Of a stretch of 23,042 nucleotides of DNA, positions 7,257 to 8,639 are shown piece after piece. Numbering within the stretch: position 1 is the stretch's first letter; every line of letters starts with the position of its first letter. The translations under genes and the position numbers were made by a program. The notes under the pieces are model-generated. The model was not told the origin of the DNA. It ran no database searches and worked only from the letters and a program-made list of their open reading frames with translations. Origin of the DNA: a virus (taxonomy: Duplodnaviria > Heunggongvirae > Uroviricota > Caudoviricetes). The stretch is from IMG/VR virus record IMGVR_UViG_2563366964_000005, positions 1 to 23,042 of that record; one strand, written 5' to 3'.

Positions 7257-7466
7257 GTGGTGGAAACCTTCAAGGCATTCCTGGATTATTTTACGGTGAC
7301 GCAATGGGTCATCATTGGGATCGGCTTCAGGGTGTTTCTCTGGATTCTCGATCGCCTGACCGACCGTTATTTCGAACGGCGATTCCAGAAGCGCCGCCAG
7401 TCTCTCCGGAATGAGATGACAGAAAAGCAGAAAAGCCCGCCCCACGACAACAGCCCCCACGCTTAA
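7257..7466 (+). CDS. small putative membrane protein (69 aa) in an intergenic insertion
   Basis: GTG start preceded by GGGGGAAG; one hydrophobic helix (VTQWVIIGIGFRVFLWIL) then a basic tail; lies in a ~400 bp gap between otherwise tightly packed genes. A minus-strand ORF (7245..7460) covers the same DNA, so the coding strand is uncertain. Confidence 0.3.
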   Translation: MVETFKAFLDYFTVTQWVIIGIGFRVFLWILDRLTDRYFERRFQKRRQSLRNEMTEKQKSPPHDNSPHA

Positions 7467-7520
7467 TCACTGAACCCCTTCAACTTATTCCCTTTTTAGT
7501 GGTGCTGTACGCTCAGCACC
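7463..7520 (+). promoter_or_regulatory. conserved 18-bp element (CACTGAACCCCTTCAACT, 7468-7485) plus U-rich spacer and perfect 7-bp hairpin (7501-7507/7514-7520) abutting the ATG at 7521; candidate late promoter or translational control site
   Basis: Exact 18/18 repeat of the element at 19256-19273; the same spacing to the start codon; the downstream gene has no SD. Confidence 0.5.
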
Positions 7521-8639
7521 ATGAAACTAACACTGATAGCCTCACTCTCCCAGGAAATTAACACCGCCACTCCCGGTGTTATCCAGCTGTTTCCCGCTGG
7601 TGAATTCCGTGCACGCGACGGTCGTCCGACCGAGTGCGCTGCCTGGCTTATGACGCGTGAAATCGCCGAGCGATTGATTGCCGCCGCCGATGCCCGCGAG
7701 ACGCCGTATGTCCTGGACTATGAACATCAGACGCTACGCTCTGCCAAAAATGGTCTGCCCGCTCCCGCTGCGGCCTTTTTCAAAAAGCTGGAGTGGCGCG
7801 AAGGTGAAGGCCTCTTTGCTGTCGATGTTGAGTGGACCACTGCCGCTGCCGACATGGTGGCAGCAAAAGCCTACCGCTTTATTTCCCCCGTATTTTCTTA
7901 CGACAAAACCGGTCAGGTGCTGGAGATCCTTAATGCCGCGCTGACCAATACTCCGGCCGTTGATGGGATGGAGGAAGTGTTACTCGCTGCCGCCTCCATG
8001 ATGGCCACCCACCTGACCACCGAGGGTAACACCGAAATGGATGAAGAATTCCTGAATGAGCTGCTGAGCAACCTGCGCTGGATGCTCAACCTTCCGACCG
8101 CATCAACGAAAGATGAGATCCTGGCCGAACTGAAGAAGATTATCTCGCTTCTGTCTAGCGGGCAGGATGCTACAGCAGCGGCGTCTGTCAGTCTGCTGGA
8201 TATCCTGAACCAGAACGCGCAGAGCATCGCCGAACTGAGCGCGAAAATCGACACCCCGGACCCGGCGAAATGGGTTTCCGTCCAGGTGATGCACGACGCC
8301 GTCCAGCAGGCAGTTGCTCAGGCTGGCAGCACCAGCATGGCCGCGCTGGCGACTCAGGAAGCGGAATCGCTCATCACGGTAGCGTTAAGTGATGGCCGAC
8401 TGCTCCCTGCGCAGCAGGAATGGGCGACAGCACTGGCGAAATCAGACCCGGGAAGCCTGAAGGCGTACATCGAGAAAGCACCAAAGATTGCTGCGCTGAC
8501 CACAACTCAGACTCGCGGCCAGCCTCCGGCAGGTGCACCTGCCCGCGAGTCTGAACCGGATGGTGATGATGCTATTGACCCGGCGATCTGCTCCCTGATG
8601 GGGACTGACCCGGCCGATATTGCGAAATATATCAAATAA
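7521..8639 (+). CDS. prohead protease/scaffold protein, Mu I-like
   Basis: 372 aa; N-terminal half fits a protease domain, C-terminal half is helical/charged and scaffold-like; sits just upstream of the major head gene. Confidence 0.75.
   Translation: MKLTLIASLSQEINTATPGVIQLFPAGEFRARDGRPTECAAWLMTREIAERLIAAADARETPYVLDYEHQTLRSAKNGLPAPAAAFFKKLEWREGEGLFAVDVEWTTAAADMVAAKAYRFISPVFSYDKTGQVLEILNAALTNTPAVDGMEEVLLAAASMMATHLTTEGNTEMDEEFLNELLSNLRWMLNLPTASTKDEILAELKKIISLLSSGQDATAAASVSLLDILNQNAQSIAELSAKIDTPDPAKWVSVQVMHDAVQQAVAQAGSTSMAALATQEAESLITVALSDGRLLPAQQEWATALAKSDPGSLKAYIEKAPKIAALTTTQTRGQPPAGAPARESEPDGDDAIDPAICSLMGTDPADIAKYIK

Follow-up and report, generated by a model that had tools for sequence, protein, structure and literature searches.

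The stretch analysed here (the window, 23,042 nucleotides (nt)) corresponds to a Mu-like prophage of Escherichia coli KTE40 and is 100% identical to a contig of GCA_000408025.1. Within it, an exact 18-base-pair (bp) repeat precedes two late genes that lack a Shine-Dalgarno (SD) sequence: one encoding a Mu-like I protease/scaffold and the other a gp46-like baseplate protein (WGA_00749 and WGA_00763 of E. coli KTE40). Each copy of the repeat is followed by a -10-like hexamer and by an inverted repeat that spans the approach to the start codon. By sequence comparison and folding models, we arrive at the proposal, to which we assign a probability of roughly 0.6, that these modules are activator-dependent late promoters making leaderless mRNAs, combined with IS10-like fold-back silencing of read-through transcripts. 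The features at the two loci are as follows.

7468-7485, plus strand: element copy 1, exact 18-mer CACTGAACCCCTTCAACT, predicted Mor/C-family activator site, at -53 to -36 relative to A7521
7471-7482, plus strand: dyad TGAA-CCCC-TTCA in copy 1, centre between 7476 and 7477
7494-7526, plus strand: copy 1 hairpin, arms GGTGCTG (7501-7507) and CAGCACC (7514-7520), loop 7508-7513; -15.1 kcal/mol, z = -2.97
7508-7513, plus strand: -10-like hexamer TACGCT without a -35, identical with the hairpin loop, at offset 23-28 past the element
7520-7521, plus strand: predicted transcription start of gene I, at C7520 (7 nt past the -10 T) or, more likely, A7521, placed from the -10 geometry
7521-8639, plus strand: Mu-like I protease/scaffold gene (PF10123, E = 2.5e-94), ATG start, SD-less, first gene of the head/tail late operon
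19256-19273, plus strand: element copy 2, exact 18-mer CACTGAACCCCTTCAACT, at -52 to -35 relative to A19308
19259-19270, plus strand: dyad in copy 2, centred at -43.5
19281-19316, plus strand: copy 2 hairpin, 16 bp, 3' arm over the AUG and the next two codons; -19.3 kcal/mol, z = -4.86
19296-19301, plus strand: -10-like hexamer TACTAT without a -35, at offset 23-28 past the element
19308, plus strand: predicted transcription start of gp46, at the A of the start codon and 7 nt past the -10 T, likewise placed from the geometry
19308-19658, plus strand: gp46-like baseplate gene (PF07409), ATG start, SD-less, first gene of the baseplate/fibre late operon

Recurrence of the 18-mer at these two positions, with ATGs (7521 and 19308) lying 35 and 34 nt past it, had been described in an earlier note on this DNA as very unlikely by chance, and both the coordinates and the statistics bear this out. 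In 100 dinucleotide-preserving shuffles of the window CACTGAACCCCTTCAACT had 0 matches, so that the chance expectation is 0. The window contains no third match when up to three mismatches are allowed, and its 12-nt core, TGAACCCCTTCA, has no further match there with fewer than two mismatches. An exact scan of one genome per species returned 16 single matches for the 18-mer, mostly in SAR86, at about chance level and none of them in a prophage.

The start codons themselves were examined through the encoded proteins. NCBI annotation gives an identical 372-amino-acid I product, and the N-terminus of the gp46-like protein (MEMLIDPVTGDY) aligns with its homologues from residue 1. The same holds for I, whose homologues include Mu I, and the start codons annotated by NCBI agree for both genes. 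The earlier description of both genes as SD-less was also upheld, as their predicted duplexes with the anti-SD sequence (-2.8 kcal/mol for I and -1.7 kcal/mol for gp46) are the weakest among the 27 gene starts of the window, most of the others falling between -5 and -10 kcal/mol. GTG serves as the start codon at five of these 27 genes.

The geometry between the element and the start codon is that of a promoter. The distance from the dyad centre to the first base of the -10-like hexamer is 31 nt in both copies, and the A of the ATG lies 7-8 nt past the last T of the hexamer. If transcription starts 7-8 nt past the -10, the dyad centre would fall at -43.5 in copy 2 and at -43.5 or -44.5 in copy 1; the hexamer begins at -13 for I and at -12 for gp46. 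A pattern scan of the plus strand found no sigma-70 -35/-10 pair at either module. The motif TANNNT about 12 nt before a start codon that lacks an SD sequence is an accepted signature of leaderless genes (PMC3160421), and both genes show it together with an AUG start. A leaderless mRNA from each promoter is thus predicted from the -10 position, and such a transcript would explain why both genes lack an SD sequence. Two further candidate signals were dropped. The TGAAC within the element was considered as a -35 of the extracytoplasmic function (ECF) sigma type and rejected, as no conservation was found 16-17 nt downstream, and a promoter-like match on the minus strand, which overlaps the copy 2 hairpin (19306 to 19279), was at chance level. 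As a separate observation, sigma-70 -35/-10-like matches are depleted across window positions 1-20000 (7 against 14.1 +/- 4.3 in shuffles), which fits a late region transcribed only from activator-dependent promoters.

Conservation of this layout was assessed in 80 viral contigs collected via their sheath protein, in which the starts of I-like and gp46-like genes were located by tblastn. Non-identical upstream regions bearing the module comprised about 31 of the I type and 46 of the gp46 type, from about 75 relatives in all. In these ~75 non-identical relatives the element does recur upstream of I-like and gp46-like genes: a CCACTGAA(C/G)CCCnTCA-like sequence, of which CTGAC variants exist, is followed by a -10-like hexamer, and the start codon comes next. 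The layout also precedes both I and gp46 in Klebsiella phage ST405-OXA48phi1.1. In a MAFFT alignment of the gp46-type regions, the A at position 2 and the T at position 6 of the hexamer are invariant (46/46), and an nAnnnT hexamer stands 6-7 nt before the ATG in all 31 I-type sequences. The gap from the -10 T to the ATG in the gp46 type is 6 nt in 33 of the 46, 7 nt in nine and 4 nt in four; taking both types together, it is 6-7 nt in 73 of 77 sequences.

The bases at the predicted start are similarly constrained. C occupies -1 in 85 of 90 unique sequences (37/38 I-type and 48/52 gp46-type), A occupies +1 in all 38 I-type sequences, and 88 of the 90 relatives use ATG as the start codon. A C at -1 before ATG matches the usual pyrimidine(-1)/purine(+1) start. 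Element identity was 0.79 within one phage compared to 0.63 between phages, a difference reached in 0 of 5,000 permutations; such likeness within a phage is expected for sites read by a phage-specific protein. Every computational test that was run (spacing, conservation of the -10, C-1/A+1 and the missing SD sequence) supports the reading, already entertained in the earlier note, in which a late promoter that depends on an activator is predicted to produce an mRNA with no leader or almost none.

A hairpin after each copy of the element had been noted as well, and folding confirmed both at the energies listed above. In copy 1 the stem can be extended by T7500:A7521, and the minimum-energy fold adds pairing between the T-run and AUGAAA. 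The arm sequences differ between the two window copies and between phages, with the pairing kept. Taking the A of ATG as +1, an 11-pair hairpin that joins -21 to -11 with -7 to +4 has 83.5% of its cells paired across the 46 gp46-type sequences, as opposed to 28-35% in controls slid by 1-3 columns. Seven of the 11 pairs changed on both sides, and 0 of 500 shuffles reached the observed covariation score. When RNAalifold was run de novo on the 17 closest relatives, which were picked by a sheath identity of at least 66% and hence by a criterion independent of the hairpin, it returned the same 11-bp stem with seven compensatory pairs. Mean pairing profiles place the arms at -21 to -13 and -7 to -1 (to +4 in the gp46 type), with the core of the -10 as the loop. 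Among the I-type relatives, -7 to -1 is paired more than in shuffled controls (p = 4.6e-6).

The mismatches in these stems reveal the strand and the nucleic acid on which selection acts. In the fixed structure there are 27 G·U against 3 A·C, and the ratio is 17 to 1 when the register is set from Watson-Crick pairs only across all three promoter classes (I, gp46 and the endolysin promoter described below). This excess indicates that the hairpin is selected as a sense-strand RNA and counts against its being a cruciform, a protein operator or an antisense RNA. Rfam gave 0 matches at the gathering score across the whole window. Neither window hairpin is followed by a T-run (the sequences continue as ATGAAAC... 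and ATGGAAATGC...), and the terminator scan calls neither. The repeat and the hairpin had been proposed as a single module; both parts are real, and they are better described as two overlapping devices.

Only read-through RNA from the preceding operon would be able to fold the hairpin, since the predicted start lies past the 5' arm. Given that start, the 5' arm precedes it and the 3' arm lies over the translation start, which is the arrangement of a fold-back inhibitor. Pattern scans found no intrinsic terminator upstream of either module, so read-through is plausible; terminator-like sites are not enriched across the window (24 against 18.4 +/- 4.4). In the folding model of copy 1, the probability of being unpaired in read-through RNA is 0.08 for the A and 0.12 for the U of the AUG, compared to 1.0 and 0.83 in the predicted leaderless RNA. 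For copy 2, the corresponding values are 0.00-0.04 (A, U and G) in read-through and 0.97 (A) and 0.91 (U) in the leaderless form. Across gp46-type relatives, the median probability that the AUG is unpaired in read-through is 0.00 against 0.36 in upstream-shuffled controls (p = 2e-8). The sense strand between -60 and -22 is also rich in C (0.40) and poor in G (0.13), compared to 0.29 and 0.30 overall, and resembles a Rho utilization (rut) site. The alternative raised earlier, an RNA processing site or translational operator, therefore survives in part: the hairpin is a separate RNA-level element, but it would not be part of the promoter's own transcript and would have to act on read-through.

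The candidate activator was found in sibling prophages (L103-L107), which encode an identical I protein; L086 and the Klebsiella phage (L001) were examined as other close relatives. A search with a single Mor protein found few loci, and an alignment-based search was used instead. The siblings carry, in order, gemA, one Mor-family gene (PF08765), one open reading frame (ORF), a third copy of the element and a GH19 endolysin gene. Their Mor gene, which lies between gemA and the endolysin promoter, matches PF08765 at 40 bits against a cutoff of 24.9. The third copy is as follows.

L103 1764-1781: third element copy TACTGAACCCCTTCAACT, 17/18 identical, with AATACT at offset 23-28, before the GH19 endolysin gene

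In L086 the third copy reads TACTGAACCCTTTCAACT (promoter regions: L103 1764-1842 and L086 3052-3130). The window begins just downstream of the endolysin gene, and the third copy therefore lies outside it. The Klebsiella phage has all three sites (I, gp46 and GH19 endolysin). One Mor-family gene is present per phage (L001 8304-8774, unannotated in the Klebsiella record, and L086 2076-2540), and tblastn found no Mor paralogue in the complete L001 genome. The homologue shares only 27-29% identity with Mor and C of Mu. With a single Mor-family gene, these phages seem to use a two-step early-to-late cascade instead of the three steps that Mu takes via Mor and then C. The 18-mer is most likely the binding site of this Mor/C-type late activator of the prophage. 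Another possible DNA-binding regulator, a 183-amino-acid early-region protein with two helix-turn-helix-like stretches, is encoded at L086 478-1029; it gave only sub-threshold matches to Sigma70_r4_2 (23.5 bits) and HTH_11, and no sigma region 2.

The endolysin copy has a hairpin of its own design. An 11-bp inverted repeat, TGACGCCATCC-N10-GGATGGCGTCA, extends as far as the A of the ATG, with TGCTTTTAA coming next. Its 5' arm begins directly past the -10, the predicted start (the A after a C, offset 35) falls within that arm, and the 3' arm covers an SD-like GGATGG before it ends at the ATG. Compensatory changes between lineages (GACGCC/GGCGTC, GACACC/GGTGTC and GGCACC/GGTGCC), together with G·U wobbles, maintain the stem. 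In three relatives (L119, L121 and L125, at ~3484-3560) TTTTTT and then ATG come after the endolysin hairpin, GGCACCATC...GGATGGTGCC, which makes it a predicted canonical intrinsic terminator between the -10 and the start codon. Early transcripts, which have to pass through the neighbouring Mor gene, would be halted or silenced on reaching the lysis gene, and late transcripts that start inside the endolysin stem would escape termination or silencing.

Putting these elements together, we propose that binding of the Mor-family activator to the dyad at about -43.5 switches on a sigma-70 promoter that has no -35. Transcription would start at the A of the ATG (or 1 nt earlier in copy 1) to yield a leaderless mRNA for the first gene, with the copy 1 promoter heading the head/tail operon at gene I and the copy 2 promoter heading the baseplate operon at the gp46-like gene. 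RNA that reads through from upstream would fold the hairpin, burying the start-codon region by fold-back inhibition, and at the lysis promoter the hairpin would either terminate read-through or hide the ribosome-binding site. If the hairpin silences read-through in this manner, the first gene would be expressed only from its own activated promoter. More speculatively, read-through RNA, with its C-rich, G-poor stretch, may be ended by Rho and the operons thereby insulated, since a first gene that is not translated in read-through RNA could leave that RNA to Rho. We infer leaderless translation, and likewise the effect of the hairpin on read-through RNA and the fate of that RNA, from this geometry.

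A wider claim can be offered only tentatively, as we hold it to be somewhat doubtful: that across a large clade of Mu-like prophages, from Enterobacteriaceae to Pasteurellaceae and hosts with high G+C content (high-GC), late start sites lie inside hairpin-encoding repeats that serve as a promoter-gated translation insulator and replace terminators. On that generalization, an activated promoter would give a translatable leaderless mRNA (short-leader at the lysis promoter), and read-in from upstream would give silent or terminated RNA, bearing a rut-like C-rich stretch, that Rho removes.

Several observations weigh against the proposal of leaderless promoters with fold-back silencing. In two relatives the gp46 start codon at the predicted start is GTG (L001 29800 and L051 17639), and E. 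coli makes poor use of GUG on leaderless mRNA. In four high-GC relatives (L076, L036, L052 and L077) the -10 T and the ATG of gp46 are separated by only 4 nt. The hairpin is missing from 13 of the 46 gp46-type sequences, mostly high-GC ones, and RNAalifold gives no consensus on all 46 because these 13 lack it. Pairing of the I-type AUG does not exceed that in shuffled controls (0.34 against 0.33), and we thus claim burial of the AUG only for the gp46 type and for window copy 1, and for the I type in general no more than pairing of -7 to -1. An internal SD-less AUG should already be poorly translated, which makes the benefit of occlusion less than obvious, and the hairpin may instead, or also, be a 3'-end stabiliser or a processing signal. 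The Mor gene is absent from the window itself, and we infer both the start sites and the identity of the activator. Mu also differs at two of the relevant points: its Plys and PI leaders are ~19 nt long with an annotated SD sequence, whereas the start predicted here is the ATG, and it has no promoter before gp46, PP lying inside gene N and gp45 and gp46 overlapping.

These points bear most directly on what the hairpin does. The promoters could be as proposed and the hairpin could have another RNA role, as a 3'-end stabiliser for the upstream operon mRNA after Rho termination or endonuclease cleavage, as an RNase III or RNase E site or as a 5' protective stem, an arrangement we regard as unlikely. 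Selection of the hairpin as sense RNA that is present only in read-through would suit such a role, as would the U-rich stretch ahead of the stem, an I-type stem that covers -20 to -1 and usually not the AUG, the little added occlusion that an SD-less internal AUG needs and the terminator formed by the endolysin-copy hairpin in some lineages. However, the gp46-type stem reaches into the coding sequence and includes AUGG, the complementary CCAT is kept (C at -21 in 39/52 and at -20 in 38/52), and the gp46-type AUG is paired far above controls; moreover, stems of 7-16 bp are short for RNase III, and neither window copy has a U-tract. A start upstream of the hairpin, which would make it a 5'-untranslated-region operator that hides the start codon until a Com-like protein or a ribosome coming from upstream opens it, appears improbable. 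Com opens the stem that hides the mom start in Mu, where the annotation describes it as regulating Mom translation; a com gene is also present in SuMu, and the start codon here does lie within the 3' arm. Against such a start, the sequences from the element to the hairpin conserve no -10-like hexamer (offsets 1-12 vary freely), and the invariant A and T, the fixed 31 nt to the dyad and C-1/A+1 indicate a start at the ATG. A leadered mRNA that lacks an SD sequence would also be a poor initiation site, even when opened.

The remaining explanations move the function to DNA or remove it. An inverted repeat acting as DNA, be it a cruciform or non-template hairpin that exposes the -10 or a palindromic operator for a second protein, is in our judgement very improbable. 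The loop coincides with -11 to -8 of the -10 hexamer in both promoter classes, and Mu C acts at closed-to-open isomerisation at Plys, PI and PP (PMC4461284). A cruciform would penalise G·T and A·C mismatches equally, but those found are G·T and not A·C (27:3 and 17:1). In addition, I-type hairpins differ in register, the stems are short for a cruciform to be extruded, the endolysin-copy hairpin lies downstream of the -10, and arms that differ in sequence between copies and phages do not make a protein operator. That the 18-mer is non-regulatory (a chance repeat, a recombination or mosaic joint, or a small mobile or repetitive extragenic palindromic (REP)-like repeat) is hardly credible: there are only two copies in the window and the one-genome-per-species exact scan gave single unrelated matches only, but 0 chance matches are expected, the distance to the -10 and the start codon is fixed in ~75 relatives, always before the same two or three genes, and the element co-varies within phages.

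The genomic setting is that of Mu. Pfam identifies homologues of Mu F, G, T, gp44, gp45 and the baseplate protein J among the neighbours of I and gp46, and near-identical I and gp46 proteins occur in Citrobacter, Salmonella, Kluyvera, Enterobacter and Cronobacter. One of 5,426 complete E. coli genomes contains a relative, at 81% identity, and the Klebsiella phage ST405-OXA48phi1.1 is the sole relative in the phage collection. Immediately upstream of copy 1, an ORF at 7257-7466 (plus strand, GTG start) encodes 69 amino acids with one hydrophobic helix (VVETFKAFLDYFTVTQWVIIGIGFRVFLWILDRL...) and no Pfam match, and it stops 2 nt short of the 18-mer. Some sibling assemblies (L104-L107, 9740-9946) have it annotated as a 68-amino-acid gene, and the Klebsiella phage lacks it. 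Farther upstream, in the intergenic region between G and I, window positions 7185-7215 (AATCGTTTTTAAAAGGGGTTTAAAAAGCCC) resemble Mu 17868-17905, beside the annotated strong gyrase cut site (17879), as well as L001 17968-17995 (GGCGTTTTTAAAAGCGGTTTAAAAACG). This stretch may be the homologue of the central strong gyrase site of Mu.

Our literature search, which included the SuMu genome paper (where promoters are never mentioned), found no published description of these promoters. Compared to the literature found, the predicted leaderless start, the promoter before gp46, the apparent single-activator cascade and a putative start inside a conserved RNA hairpin would be new. If the starts map as predicted, they would define both the consensus and the geometry of the late promoters used by Mu-like prophages of a widespread group, which is found in E. 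coli, Citrobacter, Salmonella, Kluyvera, Enterobacter, Cronobacter and Klebsiella. They would also confirm the start codons of I and gp46 for annotation and account for the absent ribosome-binding sites at both genes. If true, the proposal would provide a conserved multi-gene example of leaderless expression in enteric bacteria, where it is considered rare. It further suggests a compact, terminator-free form of operon insulation, in which only locally initiated RNA is translated and which could be reused in synthetic circuits.

The closest known counterparts are the late promoters of Mu, which have -10 hexamers and no -35 and at which C binds a 16-bp imperfect dyad centred at -43.5; -52 to -34 and the bases just downstream of the dyad are required (PMC2582627). 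The promoters described here likewise have a -10 without a usable -35, a ~16-bp imperfect dyad at -43.5 and conserved bases downstream of it. By our measurement Mu Pmom also has 31 nt, from the centre of TTAT-GCCCCA-ATAA to TAAGAT. As in Mu, multiple copies head the lysis, head and tail/baseplate operons, and the late region is closely preceded by a gene of the Mor/C family. In contrast, the Mu sites read TTAT-N6-ATAA (CCATAACCCC) and those found here TGAA-N4-TTCA, with no sequence match, so the specificity differs and the latter are not members of the Mu C regulon at the level of sequence; one activator also appears to take the place of the Mor-then-C cascade. At PI of Mu itself (L082, 18026-18049), an inverted repeat, CTGCTCA-N10-TGAGCAG, lies over the start deduced from the -10 (CAAACT), with its 5' arm straddling that start and its 3' arm abutting the SD sequence of gene I. 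A start site inside a hairpin may thus be a feature of Mu too. In SuMu (L109), a different dyad, GGAAG-N2-CTTCC, is shared before I and gp46 as GGAAGT(T/G)(G/C)TTCC (regions ~7930-8020 and 19915-20015). Its gp46 follows the same plan (31 nt, TATCCT, 6 nt, ATG), and an 8-bp repeat, CTCTCTGT/ACAGAGAG, straddles the start. The annotated SuMu I start (ATGAGG...) should probably be moved to the GTG 12 nt downstream, after GAGGTG.

Leaderless mRNAs are known from lambda cI, transcribed from PRM, and from many genes of Actinobacteria and Deinococcus, and are rare in Enterobacteriaceae. The genes described here share with them TANNNT ~12 nt upstream, the lack of an SD sequence and the AUG (PMC3160421). 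Unlike the known cases, they are predicted to head late structural operons that depend on an activator, an arrangement conserved within a wide clade of transposable prophages. The hairpin recalls that of Mu mom in that a stem-loop hides the start of a late gene. The mom stem, however, is inside the Pmom mRNA and needs a protein opener, whereas here the promoter's own transcript would be made without the 5' arm and would need no opener. A fold-back structure reportedly protects the transposase genes of IS10 and IS50 from outside transcription, and the design proposed here would work in the same way: a 5' arm upstream of the gene's own start, a 3' arm over the translation start and folding confined to read-through RNA. 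It differs from IS10 and IS50 in its place at internal phage late promoters instead of a transposon end, in the predicted leaderless start and in the conversion of the hairpin to a putative terminator at the endolysin gene in some lineages.

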